Positions 7,539 to 56,105 of a DNA stretch of 64,000 bases are shown one piece after another. A program made the translations under genes and the position numbers. Every line of letters starts with the position of its first letter. Position 1 is the stretch's first letter. The notes beneath the pieces are model-generated. The model ran no database searches and was not told the DNA's origin. It saw only the letters and a program-made list of their open reading frames with translations. The DNA is from Chloroflexota bacterium (GTDB taxonomy: Bacteria; Chloroflexota; UBA11872; VXOZ01): NCBI GenBank assembly GCA_965221905.1, contig OZ244922.1, positions 2,080,001 through 2,144,000 of the forward strand. Direction: 5' to 3'.

Positions 7539-8756
7539 CTAAATGTCATAGCCACGCTCGCCGTGAAAGGCGAGGTCGAGTCCTTGCTCCTCGTCTTGGG
7601 CAGAAACTCGTATCCCACCAGTAAGCATACCTGTAACTTTCACGATAATGAAAGTGAGGACAGCCGCCCATGCTATGACTACAACCACGCCAAGTGCCTG
7701 CACGCCTAGTTGTGCAATAATCGTGCCGCTGGCAACCAAGAGACCGCCACCGCCAAACGCAGCGACCGCTTAGACTGATACCAGCAGCGTGCCGAGTATG
7801 CCCCCCACGCCGTGCACTGCAAAGACGTCAAGCGAGTCGTCGATCTTCAATCTTTCTTTAACTATACCAACTGCGAAGAAACACACTAAACCCGCAAGCG
7901 CGCCCAGGATCACGCCGCCAATCGGTCCAACGAACCCAGAAGCGGGAGTGACTGTTGCTAGGCCCGCAATCGCGCCCGTGACGGCGCCTACCAGAGAAGG
8001 CTTACCCAGCTTGATCCACTCGATTGCCGACCACACGATCACAGCGCTAGCGGCTGCAAGATGGGTCGCGGTGATAGCCATGCCTGCGCCGCCATCAGCC
8101 ATCAGTTGGCTGCCCCCGTTGAATCCGAACCAGCCCACCCAGAGCATCGCGGCTCCCGCTGCGGTCATGCCGGGATTGTGCGGAGGTTGGAGTTGGTCGG
8201 GAAAACCGATCCGTCTGCCGAGTAGAGCGGCGATGACCAAGGCCGATATACCGGCGGTCGTATGAACCACCAGGCCGCCTGCAAAGTCCATTACGCCAAG
8301 CTCGCCCAGCCAACCACCACCCCAAACCCAATGACAAACCGGCGCATAAACGAGGATGAGCCAAGCACTGCTCAGGATTAGCATCGAAGAGAATTTGATG
8401 CGCTCCACATAGGCGCCCACGATTAGCGCCGGAGTAATGATGGCGAAAGTCATCTGAAAGATTGCGAATACGATTGCCGGGATCGAGCCCCTCATCATAT
8501 CCGCTGCCATACCAGCGAAGAAGACTCTATTAAAGCCGCCGACAATGCCGCCTAGGCTGTCGCCAAAAGACAGGCTGTAGCCCACAACCAACCAAAGTAT
8601 GCTGACCACAGCGGCAATGGAAAAACAGTGCATCATCACGGACAGTACCGACCTGGAACGCACCAAGCCCGCGTAGAACATTGCCAAACCCGGCAGTGTC
8701 ATGAACAAGACGAGAGCAGTAGACATTAGAATCCATGCAGTGTCGCCGGAGTTCAT
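7539..8756 (-). pseudogene. amtB: Ammonium transporter AmtB interrupted by one in-frame TAA (7770-7772)
   Basis: MNSGDTAW...DFAGGLVVH...GWFGFNGGS...DDSLDVFAVHG. The same frame continues past the stop: LLVSV*AVAAFGGG...EEQGLDLAFHGERGY. Either a true nonsense mutation or a sequence error. Confidence 0.85.
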
Positions 8757-36895: not shown

Positions 36896-38029
36896 GTGAA
36901 TACGATTGACGGCGCCGTTGACCTCATCAAGAAACACAAGCGGCACCGCGCGGTACTGACTCCGCGTGTCGGCCAGTTTATGTACCACTGGATGAAGGGC
37001 ACCACGCATCTACCGTATCTTCCTCTCAAGCTGCACGTCGAGCCGACCAGCGTGTGTAACTTGCGTTGCCCCATGTGCCCGCAGAGCTTGGGATTGCCCG
37101 ATGAGCAGGGCTATATGGAAGTCGACCTCTTTCGCAAGATCATCGATGACTGCAAGGACTACGTGCGCGAAATCAACCTGTTTCTGCGCGGCGAATCGCT
37201 CATTCATCCGCAGCTCGATGAAATGATTCGCATTTGCGAAGGGGCGGGGATTGTCGCGAATCTGAGTACAAACGCGAAGATCCTTACTGCGGACCGCGCC
37301 GAAATGCTCTTGGATGCGGGGCTGAGCAAGCTCACCGTGAGCTTCGACGCAGGCGAAAAAGAGATGTATGAGAAAATGCGGCACGGCGCAAAGTTTGATC
37401 GCGTGCTGGCTAATGTCCTGGAGTTTCTCCGGCGCAAACAGGCCCGAGGCAGCGACAAACCTTATGTGGTCATGCAGATGCTGGTCTTCTACGAACCCGG
37501 CATGCAGCCCAAGATCCCGCGCGAGTTTCGCGATCAGTTTGCCGGGCTTCCGGTTGATGAGTGGGACCCCATGTTTGCCCACGGCTGGGCAGGTATGTTC
37601 GACAGTAGCGAGGAGTTTACTCCTCGACCCAGCGGGCCGAACTATCACCCGTGCAACTGGCTTTGGAAGTCCATGACCATCTATTGGGATGGTACCGTCC
37701 CGGCCTGTTGCGCTGACTGGACCGGCAGCTACGTATTGGGAGACGTACGTGAAGAGAGTGTCAGCGATCTTTGGAACAACGAGGACATGGTTCGGTTACG
37801 TCAGTTGCAGGTGGACGGCCGCTATAAGGAAGTCGGCATTTGCAGCCGCTGTGACGCTCTGTGGCAACCTGACGGCAAGCTGTGGCAGGTCATGTCGAAA
37901 GTAGAAGACGTCATAACTGGTGGAAACCCGCCAGGCGAAAGCGTCCGCGTTGCCATGCAGAATGGCGCGAACGGCAACGGCAAGCCCAAAGCTAAAGTAA
38001 GAATACGCAAGAATCCGCCTCCAACGTAG
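36896..38029 (+). CDS. Radical SAM protein with C-terminal SPASM/twitch Fe-S domain
   Basis: CNLRCPMC; PCNWLW...WDG.V.ACC.D...C..C auxiliary cluster motif; GAGG RBS. Confidence 0.92.
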   Translation: MNTIDGAVDLIKKHKRHRAVLTPRVGQFMYHWMKGTTHLPYLPLKLHVEPTSVCNLRCPMCPQSLGLPDEQGYMEVDLFRKIIDDCKDYVREINLFLRGESLIHPQLDEMIRICEGAGIVANLSTNAKILTADRAEMLLDAGLSKLTVSFDAGEKEMYEKMRHGAKFDRVLANVLEFLRRKQARGSDKPYVVMQMLVFYEPGMQPKIPREFRDQFAGLPVDEWDPMFAHGWAGMFDSSEEFTPRPSGPNYHPCNWLWKSMTIYWDGTVPACCADWTGSYVLGDVREESVSDLWNNEDMVRLRQLQVDGRYKEVGICSRCDALWQPDGKLWQVMSKVEDVITGGNPPGESVRVAMQNGANGNGKPKAKVRIRKNPPPT

Positions 38030-40544: not shown

Positions 40545-40904
40545 TTACTCCTCCGGCCCACCTGCATCTGTGATTGGCGCCGAGTTGCTGGCTGTGTGTG
40601 GCGGAACCACCCAGCGACCGACACCGTTTCGAATTGCGTGCATTAGTTCCTCGATGAGTTCTTCGTCTTCACCGGAACGAATCGCCTCTGAAACGCACCC
40701 CTCGATGTGGCTGCGCAGGACGATAAGTGAGACTTCCTGCAGTCCGGCAGTTATCGCCGCCATCTGCTGGAGAATATCCACGCAGTACCTATCTTCAGCA
40801 ACCATGCGCTGAATGCCCCGCACCTGACCTTCAATCCGCCGGAGCCGGTTGAGCAGGGCTTGTTGCTCAGCTTGATATCTGTGGCCGGACGGTGCATCTG
40901 ACAA
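40545..40904 (-). CDS. CsoR/RcnR family metal-sensitive transcriptional regulator
   Basis: RLRRIEGQVRGIQRM...YCVDILQQ...HIEGCV. Confidence 0.9.
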   Translation of the reverse strand: MSDAPSGHRYQAEQQALLNRLRRIEGQVRGIQRMVAEDRYCVDILQQMAAITAGLQEVSLIVLRSHIEGCVSEAIRSGEDEELIEELMHAIRNGVGRWVVPPHTASNSAPITDAGGPEE

Positions 40905-49565: not shown

Positions 49566-51038
49566 TTAGCCTTTGATCACGCCAATGGGCCGCACACGCG
49601 CCACGACGCGGGCAATGCCGGATTGCTCCACAATGTCCACCACATCGCGCACGTCCTTATATGCCTCGCTCGCCTCTTCCGCCAGTCCGGCCTTGCTCTG
49701 CGCGCGAACGACAATGCCTTTCTGCGCCAATAGTCGCACGAGGTCTACCCCGGCAAGCTTCTTCTTTGCTGCCCCCCGGCTCAGCAGCCGACCCGCGCCG
49801 TGGCACGTGGAGGCAAAGGTCTCTCGTCGTGCCTGCTCTTGCCCTACGAGAATGTACGAGTATCGGCCCATATCGCCGGGAATGAGGACCGGTTGACCGA
49901 TGGCGCGGTACTTGGCGGGCACTTCGGGATCTCCAGCGGGCAGGGCGCGTGTGGCGCCTTTACGGTGCACGCAAAGAGTCATTTCCTCACCGTCCACGCG
50001 ATGGCGTTCCATTTTGGCGATATTGTGGGCAACGTCGTAAACTACACCAATGTCAATTGCAGGTTCCGACTGCCCAAGGACGTGCTGAAATGCCCGTCGC
50101 GTGCGCTCTGTAATGGCCTGGCGGTTGGCAAAAGCAAAGTTGGCGGCCGCTGCCATTGCGCCGAGATATGCCTGACCCTCAGGTGACTTTATGGGGGCAC
50201 AGGCCAACTGCTTATCAGGGAGCGAAATCCGGTACTGCTCCATGGCGCGCTGCATTACGCCGAGATACTCCTGGCACACTTGATGTCCAAGTCCGCGAGA
50301 ACCCGTATGGATCGAGAGCATGACCTGACCGGGCTCGTCAATGCCGAACGCATGCGCGGCCTTTTCATCCGCAATGGTCTCCACTACTTGCACTTCAAGA
50401 AAGTGATTGCCCGACCCCAGCGAACCAAGCTGCGGCGCTCCCCGTTGGCGCGCTCGATCGCTAACTTTGGAGGTATCAGCGCCAGGCAGGCATCCCCCGG
50501 ATTCGATTGCCTCCAGGTCTTCACTGCTACCGTGTCCATTGTCCACCGCCCATGCTGCGCCCCTGGCCAGAGCCCCTTCGACGTCTATGGAAACGGCGCG
50601 TTTTCTCTTCCCTCGTCCCAATCCGGTCGGCACATCGCGGAACAACTGATTCACGATTTCAGGCAATTGACTCTTGACGGCGCGCTCGTGCAAATTCGTG
50701 CGCAGCAGGCGCACGCCGCAGTTTATGTCAAATCCCACGCCACCCGGTGAGACGACGCCATCCTCGAGTCGCATCGCCGCCACACCGCCGATGGGGAAGC
50801 CATAACCCCAGTGAATGTCAGGCATGGCAAGCGCATTCCCGACGATACCGGGCAACGCGGCCATATGGGCCACCTGCTGGATCGCCATATCACCGGCCAT
50901 GGAATCGATCATGGCCTCATCAGCAAAGATAAGTCCGGGAACTCGCATGCCGGGCATGTAGCTGACCGGTAGCTCCCAGCGGACGGCATCCTGCTGCCGC
51001 AGCACCGATCGCCAATTGTGCGGCGCGTTCTTCCCCAT
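49566..51038 (-). CDS. rtcB: RtcB RNA ligase (long, archaeal-type)
   Basis: MPDIHWGYGFPIGG, DINCG, GSGNHFLE, HTGSRG, HNIAK, HRKGAT, STCHGAGR. Confidence 0.96.
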   Translation of the reverse strand: MGKNAPHNWRSVLRQQDAVRWELPVSYMPGMRVPGLIFADEAMIDSMAGDMAIQQVAHMAALPGIVGNALAMPDIHWGYGFPIGGVAAMRLEDGVVSPGGVGFDINCGVRLLRTNLHERAVKSQLPEIVNQLFRDVPTGLGRGKRKRAVSIDVEGALARGAAWAVDNGHGSSEDLEAIESGGCLPGADTSKVSDRARQRGAPQLGSLGSGNHFLEVQVVETIADEKAAHAFGIDEPGQVMLSIHTGSRGLGHQVCQEYLGVMQRAMEQYRISLPDKQLACAPIKSPEGQAYLGAMAAAANFAFANRQAITERTRRAFQHVLGQSEPAIDIGVVYDVAHNIAKMERHRVDGEEMTLCVHRKGATRALPAGDPEVPAKYRAIGQPVLIPGDMGRYSYILVGQEQARRETFASTCHGAGRLLSRGAAKKKLAGVDLVRLLAQKGIVVRAQSKAGLAEEASEAYKDVRDVVDIVEQSGIARVVARVRPIGVIKG

Positions 51039-51052
51039 GCTATTTCACCTAC

Positions 51053-51511
51053 TTAGATATCAAAGTACACTTGTATCGTCGTGCGGTTTGGCAGTATCGC
51101 AACGTCGAGTTGATGGTACGTCACCGCCTTGATCTCTATTCCCGCGCTCTCCTCGGAGTCTTCAAGCAATACTCCAGCGACGCTAGCCGAACAGCGCGGC
51201 AGTGCGCACGTAGAGAACGCACAGGTCTGCGCAACCACGCCATCCACGCTAAATAGGAAGAGTAGCTCGGCCAGCCAGTTCACGACCAGATCCGGCCAGG
51301 TTTCGCCACTGACCGCAACCTCGTGCTTTATCGCCGGCCCGGTCGCGAAGCCTGGGTCAATGCCAAGCATGATGGCATACATGCCGCGGGTTGCCGCCGC
51401 GAATGCAACACCGGGATCAGGCCCCCATGCCTGCACACCTACGTCGGCCGTATGCTCTAGGAACGCAAACCCAGCGTCATTTGCTGCCGGCGCGCCATCG
51501 TTAGCGCTCAT
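51053..51511 (-). CDS. Archease
   Basis: EHTADVG, WLAELLF, IKAVTYH, C-terminal FDI; probable ATG at 51511 overlapping the end of the upstream gene. Confidence 0.92.
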   Translation of the reverse strand: MSANDGAPAANDAGFAFLEHTADVGVQAWGPDPGVAFAAATRGMYAIMLGIDPGFATGPAIKHEVAVSGETWPDLVVNWLAELLFLFSVDGVVAQTCAFSTCALPRCSASVAGVLLEDSEESAGIEIKAVTYHQLDVAILPNRTTIQVYFDI

Positions 51512-54005
51512 GCCCGTGACCGTGGTCGTGCAAGCGTCCTTGAAGATGCGCTTTGGCATGCTGGAAAACCTGTCGCACACCGTTGTGTCGCTCAGCATCT
51601 CCACGCGTCGCAAGGGTGTCGAGCCAGGTCAGTCCGCCATCCAGAATTGTCATCATGTAAGTCGCGTCGCTGGGATTGAAGAGTTCCTGGTTATCGGCCA
51701 CGACGTACACCGGCGACGTGTGCGCCGCCACGTTTACGACCCAATAGTGCTGCACTTCCAGCGAGCTCACGCAGCGTGCCGCTATCCAGCCGCTCCCGTT
51801 GAGCTTCACTTCCCGGCTAAGCCGACAGGTCTTGCTACCGCTCGGCACTGTTTCCGTTGCAACCACGGCGCCGTTGCATACGATTTGAAGCTCGTGGAAC
51901 GGCAGCACCGATTCCACCCAAGCCTCGACTGTTAGCGTGCCGCCGCCGTTTGGCAACTTCAGCTCGTCGCCGGGGTGTTTCCCTTCAACCCGCACGTCTA
52001 TTAGCGGCCCGCTCGTTGTAAAAGTACGTCCTTGGCGGACGGCCCGTGCCCAGGTGTCAAAGGAAAAGTCATCCTGCAGCAGGGCGTACGTGCGCACGCC
52101 GCCGACCGGAATCCCTGCGCTCATTTTGTCCGTGCCGCCCACGGCAGCAACCCGGTAACCGTTGTTGAGAAACCGGTACCACTCGTGTATCCCGAATTGT
52201 TCCATGTTGGCAGTGAAGTACTTCATCTCTACCGCATCTACCTTACCGAGAACGATCTCCGCCACTGCTTCGGTATAGGGGTTCGGGAAGTGCGGAATGA
52301 CCACCAGGCCGTCGCGCTCGCGCGCGCGGTCCGCCCACTCACTCATGCTGCTGAGCACTGGATCTCCAATGTAGCTTTCACCGGGCCCGCCTGTGGTCAT
52401 GGGATACACCGGTTCGCCCTTCACTCCCAGCAGGCTGATGTGTCCCAGCAAATGCTGGCGATTCTCCGTACCCACATACACCACAGTGTCGTCCCTGCTG
52501 ACCCCGGAAACGTCGCCGGTGATATCCCCGACGTTCGTATAGAGATCGCCCCATTGGGAAGCGAGGAGGTTTATCAGATTCACGCCCTCCGCTTGGCCTT
52601 CAAGCCATGCCGTCTGTGGTGAAATGAAGTGCACGTGTGTGTCGGCGGTAACCCAGCCGTTTGCGCGCCAGTTCAGCGGACGCGCCAGCTTGAGCGTGAG
52701 TTCGCGTTGGCCGGGCGCGATATTGATCCGTTGGCGTAACGGTTGGTACTCAAACCCCTTGAAGATCTCAACGAACACATCACCTACCGGTAGCTCGATC
52801 TGGAATGTACCGTCAACGTAAGCGTACTGGGTCGTGCCTAGTTTCAGATCGCCGGCGTAATCTTCAAACCAGTTGTCATTCACTTCATGGCGATGACCGT
52901 ACGGTGGCAAGTAGCGGCCGTCGGGCGACCGGAAGTGGACGCGTGCAGCGGTGGGCTTGTCCGTAGTCGCATCTTCCAACCGCACGTGGACCCATGCACG
53001 TTCCGGGGTGAGGACCTCAACCAGGACTTTGCCGTCGCCGCTCTTGCTCTGACCCGTTTCGTAAAGCGAATCCATTGGCACGGCGCGACCGGCCACCTCC
53101 AGCGTGGCGTCAGGGCTGGCGGTCACATCCACGATGAGGGAATTCCCATCTTCTTTGCTCTCTGCCTCGCCCAAGCCGAGCGCTTCGTCCCTGAGCCAAG
53201 TATCCGGGTCGAACGCCGGTACCGCATACTTGCGCGCCAAGGTACCAAGGTCCACGGTCACCGGGGTGTCTTCGGGCGGCGCGCCATCCATTTCAGGCGG
53301 CAGCACTATGCGAAAGCTCTCCAATTGATTGTGGCGTAGGGGATGATGCTTGCCTGTAAACAGGGTGATGCCGGCAACCACCACGTTTCCGCTGCCGGTG
53401 GCAGCCAAGTGCAACGATTCCACAGTCTTTTCAGGGTACGGATTCGGTAAGGCGTAGATCCAATAGTATGACGATGTTCTTGCCCGCGACATTGCAATGC
53501 CCGTCTGCCAGTGCCCCCATGAGCCGCGAGGATACGGCCCGTTGATGTCCACCGGCTCCGTGGCATTCTGCGGCCGGGCGGCAAAGGCCATTTGTCCCCA
53601 AGCTACCGTCGAGTTGATCTCGAACCGCCGTCGGACCGGCTGCGACTGTTCGTCGCCGTCGGCGTATCCAAGCGTATAGGCAGCAAGCTGTTCGCCAGGT
53701 TGCATGACCATGCCGGTCATTCCGGGATTCTCTGATACACCTGGTTCTGCGTCACAGAAGTGCGCAATGACAAAATGCGTGATGCCGCTGCGGCCAACCG
53801 GTACGGCAACTCCATCTTTGCTCAACCTAATCCAGCTCTTGGTTGCATCTGAAGCCCCTAGCTCGAATGGAATTCCCCAATACGCTTGCTCTCCGTCCGG
53901 CAGGTTGTCCAGTTCACCCGCTACGGGACCATCCCAAGAGGACACGTCGTCTTGGCGCGCGGCATTTCGCACTGCCGACAGATCAAGAGGTATAGCGTGT
54001 ACCAT
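51501..54005 (-). CDS. CehA/McbA-type PHP-domain metallohydrolase with a large N-terminal extension
   Basis: GWVTADTHVH, HLLGH, PHFP, WYRFLN.G......GGTD, GRTFTTSGP, AHTSPVYV; AGGAGG RBS before ATG 54005. Confidence 0.82.
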   Translation of the reverse strand: MVHAIPLDLSAVRNAARQDDVSSWDGPVAGELDNLPDGEQAYWGIPFELGASDATKSWIRLSKDGVAVPVGRSGITHFVIAHFCDAEPGVSENPGMTGMVMQPGEQLAAYTLGYADGDEQSQPVRRRFEINSTVAWGQMAFAARPQNATEPVDINGPYPRGSWGHWQTGIAMSRARTSSYYWIYALPNPYPEKTVESLHLAATGSGNVVVAGITLFTGKHHPLRHNQLESFRIVLPPEMDGAPPEDTPVTVDLGTLARKYAVPAFDPDTWLRDEALGLGEAESKEDGNSLIVDVTASPDATLEVAGRAVPMDSLYETGQSKSGDGKVLVEVLTPERAWVHVRLEDATTDKPTAARVHFRSPDGRYLPPYGHRHEVNDNWFEDYAGDLKLGTTQYAYVDGTFQIELPVGDVFVEIFKGFEYQPLRQRINIAPGQRELTLKLARPLNWRANGWVTADTHVHFISPQTAWLEGQAEGVNLINLLASQWGDLYTNVGDITGDVSGVSRDDTVVYVGTENRQHLLGHISLLGVKGEPVYPMTTGGPGESYIGDPVLSSMSEWADRARERDGLVVIPHFPNPYTEAVAEIVLGKVDAVEMKYFTANMEQFGIHEWYRFLNNGYRVAAVGGTDKMSAGIPVGGVRTYALLQDDFSFDTWARAVRQGRTFTTSGPLIDVRVEGKHPGDELKLPNGGGTLTVEAWVESVLPFHELQIVCNGAVVATETVPSGSKTCRLSREVKLNGSGWIAARCVSSLEVQHYWVVNVAAHTSPVYVVADNQELFNPSDATYMMTILDGGLTWLDTLATRGDAERHNGVRQVFQHAKAHLQGRLHDHGHGHER

Positions 54006-54131
54006 CAATGCCCTCCTCATAAGGCCGTGGTCGAGGTAATTGGGAGTTTTCACACCCGGAATCTAACTGTGACTGCACGGTACCATGAACCCGTCAAGAG
54101 CAACACTAAGAAGCTCAACGGGGCAGCGGGA

Positions 54132-55088
54132 CTACTGCAGATGCGGGTTTTGAGGGTTCATGTCCTGCACGGCTTGCAGTGCCTGCATAGTTGGCAAGAC
54201 CGCTTCACCGGATACCATTGGTTCTCGCTCTTGGCGGAGCGCGCTGATGAATTCGATATTCTGCAAATACCCGGCGCTGGCTTCCTCATTTTCGCCACCG
54301 GCAGCCACTATCTGATCATTAGGATCAACCAGTCTTCTATCCCGGACCATCAACGTGGTCTCTTCACCAATGATCAGGATTTCGAGGAGAGGACGCATAG
54401 TGTTGTAGGAGAGCGCGCACGATACGATTTGGTCGCGTTGCGTACGCAGCGACACCGCCAGATCTAGAGGAATTCCAAGCTCTTGGTGCGGCGGCCCCAT
54501 GTAGCCCGCAATATCTTTGGCGGGCTCCCCCAGCAGCCAGAGCGCTGTATCTACCGCATGGCACCCGTGGTGCCAGAGCAAGTTGTCGGTCCACGAGCGT
54601 CGCCGTCCTTGCCAATTCACGTTCTCTCGGCGCAGGAACCCATAGTGAATATACAGGCTGTGAACATGCAACTCGCCTTCGGCAATGCGCTGCCGCACTG
54701 CCGACAGCGTCGGCCAAAAGCGCATGGTATGGGCGACCATCATGGTGCGGCCCTTCTGTTCGGCAAGCGCAGTGAGCATCTCGGACTCTTGTAGGGAGAG
54801 GGCGAGAGGGATCTCCACCAGCACGTGTTTGCCGGCCTCGAGCGCAGCCTGTGTTTGCGCTGCATGCCTCGCGCTGGGCGACGTGACGACGACCGCGTCT
54901 ATGTCATCTTGCGCCAGTGCTTCCGCGAGGTCCACCGTTGCCAAGGAAGCGCCGCACTTCTGCGCGAACGCCTGCGTTGGCTCCAAGAGCCGCCCGACCA
55001 CCGCCGTAATCTGAACACCGGGTATCCGGGCAAACGACCGACGATGGACATCGGCGATACTGCCGTACCCCACCATACATAGATTCAT
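54132..55088 (-). CDS. Gfo/Idh/MocA oxidoreductase resembling LigC/PmdC
   Basis: GYGSIA, HVLVEIP, RREN.N..G..RSWTDNLLWHH.CH.VD, which resembles the LigC-family motif. Confidence 0.82.
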   Translation of the reverse strand: MNLCMVGYGSIADVHRRSFARIPGVQITAVVGRLLEPTQAFAQKCGASLATVDLAEALAQDDIDAVVVTSPSARHAAQTQAALEAGKHVLVEIPLALSLQESEMLTALAEQKGRTMMVAHTMRFWPTLSAVRQRIAEGELHVHSLYIHYGFLRRENVNWQGRRRSWTDNLLWHHGCHAVDTALWLLGEPAKDIAGYMGPPHQELGIPLDLAVSLRTQRDQIVSCALSYNTMRPLLEILIIGEETTLMVRDRRLVDPNDQIVAAGGENEEASAGYLQNIEFISALRQEREPMVSGEAVLPTMQALQAVQDMNPQNPHLQ

Positions 55089-55225
55089 CGCGTGACTCTC
55101 ACTCTCATTGCAAGCTTCAAAGAGGCGCAACCCTTGAGCAGGACACCGCCCAACACACTAAACCTTGCACGAATTCCAAAGTAACCCGGCCCGGCCTTCG
55201 CGCCTCATGCGCTCTGCAATCGGCG

Positions 55226-55678
55226 TCAGCGCGTGTGGCCGACGAGGCTCGTGGTAGTTACTGCCTCTGCCAAGACTTCCTCGGTAATTTCGCCATCGGG
55301 CCTTTTGGGAATGACAAAGGCGCGACGGTTTACGTCGGTATCCACCACTTGCAGCGTTTCGTCGGGTCCAAGTTCGGTGCCCATCTGCTTTAGCCAAGCT
55401 GCGGGATCACTGATGATGGCGGTCTTGTAGTTCGGGTCTTTCCAAAAGTGGGGTGCCCCGCCTAAGAATGACGGGTAACAGCTACACGGCGTGCAGATAA
55501 TCATGTGATGCGTGGAGCCAGTATTGTCATAAACGGCCAGGGACAGATGACCCGGCACGTCGATATTGAGTTCCTCCAGTGCTCCACGTGGATCGCGCAG
55601 CAGCAGGTTCCTGAAGTTCCCATCTTCCCAGACACGCTTGATCACTCTTCGCGCGTCAAGATTGTCAGCCTGTGTCAT
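55226..55678 (-). CDS. Nitrile hydratase alpha-subunit-like protein, N-terminally short, no beta subunit nearby
   Basis: W.D..FR..LL.DP, NT..THHMIICTPCSCYP..LG..P..WK...Y, V.D....R..VIPKRP.G, VT..SLVG; AGGAGA RBS. Confidence 0.88.
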   Translation of the reverse strand: MTQADNLDARRVIKRVWEDGNFRNLLLRDPRGALEELNIDVPGHLSLAVYDNTGSTHHMIICTPCSCYPSFLGGAPHFWKDPNYKTAIISDPAAWLKQMGTELGPDETLQVVDTDVNRRAFVIPKRPDGEITEEVLAEAVTTTSLVGHTR

Positions 55679-55834
55679 TTGGTGTCTCCTTTGTGTATCG
55701 GGACTAGCATACCATATACTTTCGGATACACCTGCGATTGGTTCCCGGTGTCACAGTCCACGATAGGCTCATATGCCTTGAGATCGACATAGGTTGTTGC
55801 GAATTATTGTATAACGTGATCAGTTGCCCGCATC

Positions 55835-55863
55835 TTGCCAAGAAACTGTCAACTCGATATAAT
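55835..55863 (+). promoter_or_regulatory. Sigma70 promoter for tRNA-Gly (and possibly tig)
   Basis: TTGCCA-17bp-TATAAT. Confidence 0.7.
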
Positions 55864-55881
55864 GATTGCGTGTCAAAGTGT

Positions 55882-55953
55882 GCGGAAGTGGCTCAGAGGT
55901 AGAGCATCACCTTGCCAAGGTGAGGGTCACGGGTTCGAATCCCGTCTTCCGCT
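55882..55953 (+). tRNA. tRNA-Gly (GCC); CCA not encoded
   Basis: GCGGAAG/CTTCCGC acceptor stem, GCTC/GAGC D arm, TCACC-TTGCCAA-GGTGA anticodon arm, ACGGG-TTCGAAT-CCCGT T arm, discriminator T. Confidence 0.97.
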
Positions 55954-55985
55954 CCCGGCGAGTCACGAGAACGCCGACGTTAGAG

Positions 55986-56020
55986 AAAAAGAGCGCTGCT
56001 AAGGCTGCGCCTCTTTTTTT
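55986..56020 (+). terminator. Candidate intrinsic terminator after tRNA-Gly
   Basis: Imperfect GC hairpin flanked by A5 and T7. Confidence 0.55.
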
Positions 56021-56105
56021 GCTATGTCACGAACTTTCGCGAAAACTGAAGAGTTAGATACCTGCACCTTCAACGGTGTTGCGGTAAGGGAGAGCATACA
56101 CGGCA

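Follow-up and report, generated by a model that had tools for sequence, protein, structure and literature searches.

A conserved 150-residue nitrile hydratase alpha-like protein with an intact cysteine claw from one lineage of Chloroflexota

The alpha and beta genes of characterized nitrile hydratases (NHases) lie side by side, and to our knowledge every structurally studied NHase or thiocyanate hydrolase has its active site at the alpha-beta interface, with beta arginines treated as essential. The window analyzed here, a 64,000-nucleotide stretch of Chloroflexota DNA, encodes a protein of 150 residues that resembles the alpha core, retains the Cys-rich metal motif (claw) and has no recognizable beta gene nearby. 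This raises the question of what such an alpha core is: an enzyme in its own right, a partner of a distant beta subunit, a metal protein with another role, a peptide precursor or a relic. The features of the gene are as follows.

55226..55678, minus strand: coding sequence of the 150-residue NHase-alpha-core protein (ORF, Pfam, AlphaFold2, Foldseek and dN/dS evidence)
55475..55495, minus strand: metal claw C62-T63-P64-C65-S66-C67-Y68, invariant in 22/22 family rows and 15/15 genomic copies
55229..55237, minus strand: C-terminal H148-T149-R150 at the protein end, HTR in 22/22 family rows and 14/15 genomic copies
55686..55690, minus strand: ribosome-binding site AGGAG, 7 nt before the ATG, with GGAG invariant and the preceding A present in 11/12 aligned loci
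55706..55714, minus strand: extended -10 element TGGTATGCT, an upstream footprint in 12/12 regions

The ORF comprises 150 codons (453 nt) from an ATG start on the minus strand (55226-55678), and its product has a mass of 16.7 kDa and a pI of 5.3. Within the stop-to-stop frame (55229-55750) just 24 codons are open upstream of the ATG, so no additional N-terminal arm is concealed behind an alternative start codon. The protein has three Cys residues in total, C62, C65, and C67, all inside the claw. The GC content of the gene (0.556, window 0.565) and its GC3 match those of neighboring genes, and its composition is native.

The Pfam NHase_alpha model (PF02979) matches with 120.5 bits (cut-off 27.2) over profile positions 37-183 of 184. 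Searching the PDB by sequence returns NHase alpha chains (best 1v29_A, E 3.5e-25), which align only from their own residue 45-75 onward. The NCBIfam equivalog models give scores below their cut-offs, far below in the case of NHase alpha (TIGR01323, 110.7 bits, cut-off 249.85; thiocyanate hydrolase gamma subunit TIGR03887, 80.3 bits, cut-off 291.45). An AlphaFold2 model built from a 137-row alignment (pLDDT 94.6, pTM 0.88) predicts the NHase alpha core fold. Foldseek comparison with the PDB yields 39 matches at E <= 0.001 with TMq values of 0.81-0.87, all of them NHase alpha chains of both Co and Fe type or the thiocyanate hydrolase gamma subunit, and the next match lies at E ~1. By fold, sequence, and claw the protein belongs to the NHase alpha superfamily, but it lacks four features of the enzyme subunit: an equivalog-level score, the arm, a neighboring beta gene, and the conserved arginines. 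A homodimer prediction (two copies, with alignment) reached 0.00 and 0.02, short of the 0.42 mark, and was counted neither way. Precomputed annotation attaches PF27793 to the family; a literature search of open-access papers and preprints returned no mention of this entry.

The CxxCSC signature of NHase alpha is present, with C62, C65, S66, and C67 invariant, and in the 22-row family alignment the invariant stretch extends to I61-C-T-P-C-S-C-Y-P69. In claws of this kind the metal-ligating backbone amides are those of the Ser and the last Cys, not that of the third-position residue. Pro at the third position is found in 4/114 other alphas. The serine amide is mentioned as a metal ligand in PMC2887384, and a CTPCSC sequence from a dinoflagellate (Karenia brevis) EST was set aside as a possible artefact in PMC3323583. 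Co-type claws are given as CTLCSCY and Fe-type claws as CSLCSCT (PMC2667541); Thr63 and Tyr68 are thus of the Co type and suggest Co(III) as the metal, with Fe(III) as the other candidate. The protein ends ...SLVGHTR, three residues past the fold and its last conserved Gly, and the one genomic copy departing from the HTR tail (locus L006) ends HSC.

A column-by-column comparison of 22 family rows with 114 other alphas separates what is kept from what is changed. Retained from ordinary alphas are W17, D19, H57, the claw, Y68, P69, P76, Y84, P92, R119, P124, P127, and G147. A larger set of positions has been exchanged for another invariant residue: G9A, E51D, N58H, V61I, L64P, P75A, Y79W, S81D, R85K, R87A, R93A, V95W, F99M, S114T, T115D, A116V, Y120A, L123I, D143T, I146V, and V148H. 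These include three arginines conserved in ordinary alphas (R85K, R87A, R93A). The DS[ST][AS] stretch of ordinary alphas is likewise replaced. Its T114 aligns with S169 of the Geobacillus pallidus alpha, a residue described at the alpha-beta interface, where a substituted Arg forms a buried salt bridge with beta D218 (PMC9465369); the altered D-T-D-V stretch therefore corresponds to a former alpha-beta interface. The arm, which in the G. pallidus enzyme comprises a 3-10 helix and helices H1 and H2 and packs intimately on the beta helical domain (PMC9465369), is absent, with approximately 45-60 N-terminal residues missing.

The original prediction had described the protein from the DNA alone, and its account holds. 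The 150 residues with the full core signature, and the three Cys and the Ser of the motif at 55475-55495, can be read directly from the sequence. YKTA stands at residues 84-87 in place of YRSR (Y-R-[S/A]-R in the 114 other alphas). The proposed combination of Co-type Thr and Tyr with Pro for Leu is seen in the column comparison (T63/Y68, L64P), and loss of the N-terminal arm agrees with a Pfam match that begins at profile position 37 and PDB chains that align from residue 45-75.

A word-indexed protein search recovered 33 relatives at 66-93% identity, 26 of which are exactly 150 residues long. Three others have 147-148 residues and four are aberrant (174 and 173 residues; fragments of 114 and 90). 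The 173-residue database member, P0031, is frameshifted after residue 97, and its tail resembles an alternative-frame ORF of the window (55158-55397, minus strand); the frameshift reflects either a sequencing error or a pseudogene, confined to a single contig. The clean 22-row alignment contains 59 invariant columns. Scanning genome contigs located 14 loci (labels of the type L001), all in Chloroflexota MAGs, giving 15 sources including the window, and the ORF is intact at 453 nt and 150 codons in 15/15 copies. The median dN/dS is 0.11 (range 0.06-0.23; Nei-Gojobori, 81 of 105 pairs with usable dS). A profile search of 1.84 billion 50%-identity representatives of all lengths places the family in a single cluster (P0013, 301 bits, 150 residues), followed by two fragments, by P0034 (153 residues, 143.5 bits) and then by ordinary or beta-alpha fused NHases at <=126 bits; no longer or fused family member appeared among these representatives, with no length filter applied. 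The gene is genuine, is under purifying selection and is conserved in length, and the family is specific to one Chloroflexota lineage. In open-access papers and preprints, no description of stand-alone or orphan short NHase alpha proteins was found; apart from the EST remark, what came up dealt with ordinary NHases or with RiPPs.

Upstream of the gene, DNA from more distant loci cannot be aligned except in two blocks, the -10 block and the AGGAGG block of the ribosome-binding site, which align in 12/12 regions. T.TG.TAT.CT is invariant across these regions and the G of TATGCT nearly so. Conservation of these blocks in otherwise unalignable DNA argues for a dedicated extended -10 promoter of the gene's own, with a predicted start near 55699. 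A consensus promoter scan made no call at TGGTATGCT, as there is no -35 element for it to recognize. Both the ribosome-binding site and the candidate extended -10 element at 55714-55706 had been proposed originally, and both are kept in 12/12 aligned upstream regions.

P0034 heads a second short family of ~153 residues and 14 clusters, with P0181-P0192 among its members; NCBI annotates one of them as "nitrile hydratase subunit alpha [Chloroflexi bacterium]". Phylogenetic placement was assessed with a quick IQ-TREE run (LG+G4, SH-aLRT support only) on 131 rows, excluding NHLPs and comprising 9 of the 22 family rows (13 near-duplicates were dropped), 8 from the sister family and 114 others. The two short families and the long-branched P0134 form one clade (SH-aLRT 99), which the midpoint root separates from the other 113 sampled alphas. 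The family thus belongs to a deep clade of NHase alphas of its own. Pfam scores of the two short families lie at 120-125 bits, whereas 19 other alphas, three of them short, reach 147-261 bits. P0134, a metagenomic representative of 218 residues, carries a 76-residue N-terminal extension and a degenerate claw (...AARDFCGCYP...) yet ends GHSR; its long branch leaves its placement unsure. The loss of the claw with retention of the C-terminal GHSR hints at a role not tied to metal. Other short alpha-only clusters occur elsewhere, including a second monophyletic group of seven rows and Atlas clusters of 139-162 residues, and those inspected keep Y-R-x-[R/Q]. When the protein itself was used to search the Atlas, all that came back were further short NHase_alpha clusters scoring <=0.85, which are leads only.

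Could a beta subunit lie close by? Pfam detects no NHase_beta_N, NHase_beta_C, or CobW-type domain in any of the 56 window ORFs scanned, each of 100 residues or more. The search space for beta was then the six-frame translation of the 64-kb window and of ±10 kb at the 14 loci (6048 pieces). Over this set, neither a profile made from the beta regions of six fused beta-alpha proteins nor a phmmer search with 11 beta segments gave any match below E 0.6; the weak matches are trigger factor and RtcB. As a positive control, the family profile recovered the alpha-like gene in 15/15 sources of the same set. A beta gene alongside, as expected of an NHase alpha, was thus not found within the window or within ±10 kb at the 14 loci, and the original statement that the window holds neither beta nor activator agrees with the Pfam survey of its 56 ORFs and with the beta profile result. 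In published descriptions, characterized NHases are made up of both alpha and beta (PMC2887384, PMC7329996). According to PMC7193024, beta R52 and R157 form salt bridges with the oxidized Cys residues, and the beta R56Y and R56E variants are inactive. Because canonical catalysis depends on beta arginines, the alpha core may be a poor catalyst or none.

The genes downstream on the same strand are as follows.

54132..55088, minus strand: GFO/IDH/MocA oxidoreductase, PmdC/LigC-like, 318 residues (Pfam; 9azo_A PmdC, E 2.3e-56, full length)
51501..54020, minus strand: CehA/McbA (PHP-type) metallohydrolase, multidomain, 839 residues (NCBIfam NF038032, 160.9 bits)
block 49566-54020, minus strand: the hydrolase followed downstream by archease, RtcB, and an AIR-synthase-related gene, with overlaps or gaps of <=15 nt

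The order NHase-like gene, oxidoreductase, hydrolase is kept in 15/15 genomes, all of them closely related and syntenic across the full 20 kb, and includes two loci with a different upstream flank (L010 and L012). No terminator was called by a scan between the NHase-like gene and the oxidoreductase gene, and the two are possibly co-transcribed. Calling the oxidoreductase LigC-like was right; its best solved relative is PmdC (9azo_A), a CHMS dehydrogenase (PMC11489326). The original prediction had gone further and proposed a partnership of the NHase-like protein with this dehydrogenase and the hydrolase. The constant gene order speaks for that proposal; against it, the genomes are close kin, the spacer to the oxidoreductase, 137 nt in the window (55089-55225), ranges from 41 to 457 nt and is unconserved except for the oxidoreductase ribosome-binding site, the hydrolase family has at least 553 clusters (Chloroflexota, Anaerolineae and others) compared with 33 for the NHase-like family, and the hydrolase is tied to archease and RtcB. 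For these reasons the functional link to the oxidoreductase and hydrolase, which is drawn from gene order, is weak.

Several further observations concern this neighborhood. The hydrolase may belong with the RNA-repair genes (archease, RtcB) rather than with the NHase-like gene; locus L010 has no RtcB or AIRS match. The AlphaFold2 model of the hydrolase (pLDDT 90.3) shows beta-sandwich domains and a PHP-like domain, with AziU3/U2, PsfC, 3e38, 2anu, and EndoQ as Foldseek neighbors. Its N-terminal half was considered as a stand-in for beta and rejected: it has no Pfam or PDB sequence match, Atlas returns only unnamed clusters, and the predicted domains are nothing like NHase beta. The spacer before the oxidoreductase is expanded to 316-457 nt in L004, L005, L007, and L012 (10454 to about 10900), and an ORF-like piece (...NLRYQEIE...) common to those of L005 and L007 may be a small repeat that was inserted. 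In the window a tRNA-Gly(GCC) gene (55882-55955, plus strand) lies divergently to the NHase-like gene, preceded by a near-consensus match to a sigma-70 promoter (TTGCCA-17-TATAAT, 11/12, at 55835-55863); the listed ORF 55866-56057 is a mere translation of this tRNA. In five loci the tRNA is replaced by a divergent GNAT acetyltransferase gene, absent from the window and confirmed by Pfam in three of the five (minus strand; L003 8796-9587, L004 8817-9662, L005 8817-9662, L007 8815-9762, L010 8996-9820). Farther away, at 15-18 kb, lie a CsoR/RcnR-type repressor (40545-40904, minus strand) and a radical SAM/SPASM protein (36896-38029, plus strand), and no link between either of them and the NHase-like gene was found. 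An ammonium transporter ORF (7770-8756, minus strand) matches profile positions 1-323 of 399 only, and the gene may be interrupted or its end read in another frame.

The protein also scores above the cut-off of the leader_NHLP model (TIGR03793, 69.3 bits, cut-off 50.9), in two stretches that flank the claw region, and weakly matches other models of the NHLP clan. Ordinary NHase alphas are reported to match the NHLP model in two stretches as well, and NHLPs to lack 63 residues that include CxxCSC and to possess a Gly-Gly site and a core peptide (PMC2887384). No deletion of the claw region, Gly-Gly site or C-terminal core peptide is found in the NHase-like protein. None of the 56 window ORFs encodes a cyclodehydratase, LanM, or C39 ABC transporter, and the sole radical SAM/SPASM gene of the window lies 17 kb off. 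On these sequence features the protein is not an NHLP. Of the earlier suggestion that it is intermediate between NHase and NHLP, one part stands, as the arm is missing as in NHLP leaders; against the rest, the region deleted in NHLPs is kept, the Gly-Gly site and core are lacking, and the family has its own deep clade in a tree of NHase alphas drawn without NHLPs.

The protein is probably a metalloprotein that stands alone. Taken together, the data lead us to propose a stand-alone NHase-alpha-core protein that would carry a Co or Fe claw, undergo Cys oxidation and act as a hydratase on a nitrile-like substrate without a canonical beta, a proposal that we hold to be evenly poised between right and wrong. 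C62, C65, and C67, with the backbone amides of S66 and C67, would bind low-spin Co(III), or Fe(III), and two of the claw Cys would be oxidized as in NHase. The site would then hydrate a small substrate with a C-N multiple bond, for example a nitrile, thiocyanate, or isonitrile. Roles usually filled by beta, namely shielding and hydrogen bonding, would pass to the family-invariant H58, W79, D81, K85, W95, D115, and H148-T149-R150. From gene order, joint action with the downstream PmdC-like dehydrogenase is possible. Against a stand-alone hydratase weigh the lack of an adjacent metal transporter or activator and the TIGR01323 score far under its cut-off. A bolder form, for which we have limited confidence, regards the whole short clade as self-sufficient minimal NHase-type catalysts, in which the alpha core itself would supply the second-sphere residues that come from the beta arginines in all studied enzymes, for example through the HTR tail, K85, and W79/W95, and in which the chemistry or substrate may not be nitrile hydration.

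Several other explanations compete with this proposal. The claw might serve a metal protein that is not a hydratase, for instance one that buffers or chaperones Co or Fe or that senses redox state or NO. Such a role would account for the missing beta arginines that catalysis requires (PMC7193024), for the strong divergence from the enzymes (120 bits against 147-261 for 19 other alphas) and for the retention of the C-terminal tail, but not the claw, in P0134. However, the gene has no metal-homeostasis genes next to it (15 kb separate it from the CsoR/RcnR-type repressor), the claw is invariant, Co-type Thr and Tyr included, and ToyJ provides a precedent for catalysis by an alpha alone (PMC7329996), so that we regard this role as rather doubtful. 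Alternatively, the protein could be a conventional NHase alpha whose beta, perhaps one with a compensating extension, is encoded elsewhere in the genome. The intact claw and core fold fit this view, as does the need of canonical activity for beta arginines (PMC7193024), and the search for beta covered the window and ±10 kb in 14 genomes. Yet the arm that clasps beta is absent, three conserved arginines and the DS[ST][AS] interface stretch have been replaced, the family occupies a deep separate clade, and the characterized NHases described in PMC2887384 and PMC7329996 consist of alpha plus beta; an unlinked beta is accordingly considered unlikely.

The last two explanations carry far less weight. 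A RiPP precursor of NHLP type, or a leader-like protein with the Cys residues as modification sites, is suggested by the leader_NHLP score of 69.3 bits above its cut-off of 50.9 and by the weak matches to other NHLP-clan models. This is highly improbable, as the two-stretch match is that reported for ordinary NHases (PMC2887384), the region deleted in NHLPs is present, just three residues follow the fold with no Gly-Gly site or core, and the window has no cyclodehydratase, LanM, or C39 ABC transporter, with its only radical SAM/SPASM gene at a distance of 17 kb. Decay of a former NHase operon to a remnant, an outcome that the original prediction had named against itself, might be read into the missing arm and beta and the frameshift of P0031. 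It is scarcely credible: all 15 copies are intact and of the same length with dN/dS 0.11, and conservation extends to the promoter, the ribosome-binding site, and 59 invariant columns, which excludes a truncated relic as the explanation of the family.

If the proposed stand-alone hydratase is correct, a selected 150-residue alpha core without beta would represent a minimal scaffold for the assembly and function of a metal center with Cys-sulfinate/sulfenate ligands. It would also show how the alpha fold can become independent of beta, a step that came before the NHLP leader peptides as well, and could serve as a compact, single-gene biocatalyst. Were the bolder, self-sufficient form true, this would be the smallest natural protein with an oxidized Cys-claw Co/Fe center. 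Should a beta turn up at another place in the genome, the family would be no more than a divergent NHase whose genes are unlinked.

Among known systems, Co-type NHase alphas (Bacillus smithii 1v29_A, Geobacillus pallidus 2dpp/7qou, Pseudonocardia thermophila 1ire) share the fold (TMq 0.84-0.86, 31-34% identity), the C-T-x-C-S-C-Y claw with its Thr and Tyr (PMC2667541), and the residues W17, D19, H57, P76, R119, P124, P127, and G147. In contrast to these, the NHase-like protein is without the ~45-60 N-terminal residues of the arm on beta (PMC9465369), has Pro for Leu in the claw, carries R85K, R87A, R93A, and at least 12 more family-specific replacements, ends three residues beyond the last conserved Gly, and has no beta or activator gene found adjacent. 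NHLP leaders (TIGR03793) are also derived from NHase alpha and also lack the N-terminal arm, whereas the NHase-like protein has the claw and lacks a core. The 153-residue sister family, at ~40% identity, has the same short architecture and shares D51, G54, H58, and F71, V-V-D-T, and R-A-x-V-I-P-[K/R], with [F/Y]-W-K for W-Y-K, and its C-terminus falls on the same column, with Arg or Lys as the last residue (GYAR or GYAK versus GHTR). It differs in its claw (CT[K/Q/E]CSCW), in having Arg, or in some members Gly or Lys, at the column of A87, and in having mostly Arg at that of A93. Finally, ToyJ, the alpha of the three-subunit toyocamycin NHase, is likened here by description only: ToyJ-type alphas are ~21 kDa (AnhA, 21.33 kDa) and are encoded with two beta-derived subunits (PMC7329996), while the NHase-like protein is 16.7 kDa and has no beta-derived neighbors. 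According to Nelp 2014, as quoted in PMC7329996, ToyJ needs no other subunit to be active and fully modified, and it thus offers a precedent for an alpha acting alone, as proposed for the NHase-like protein.
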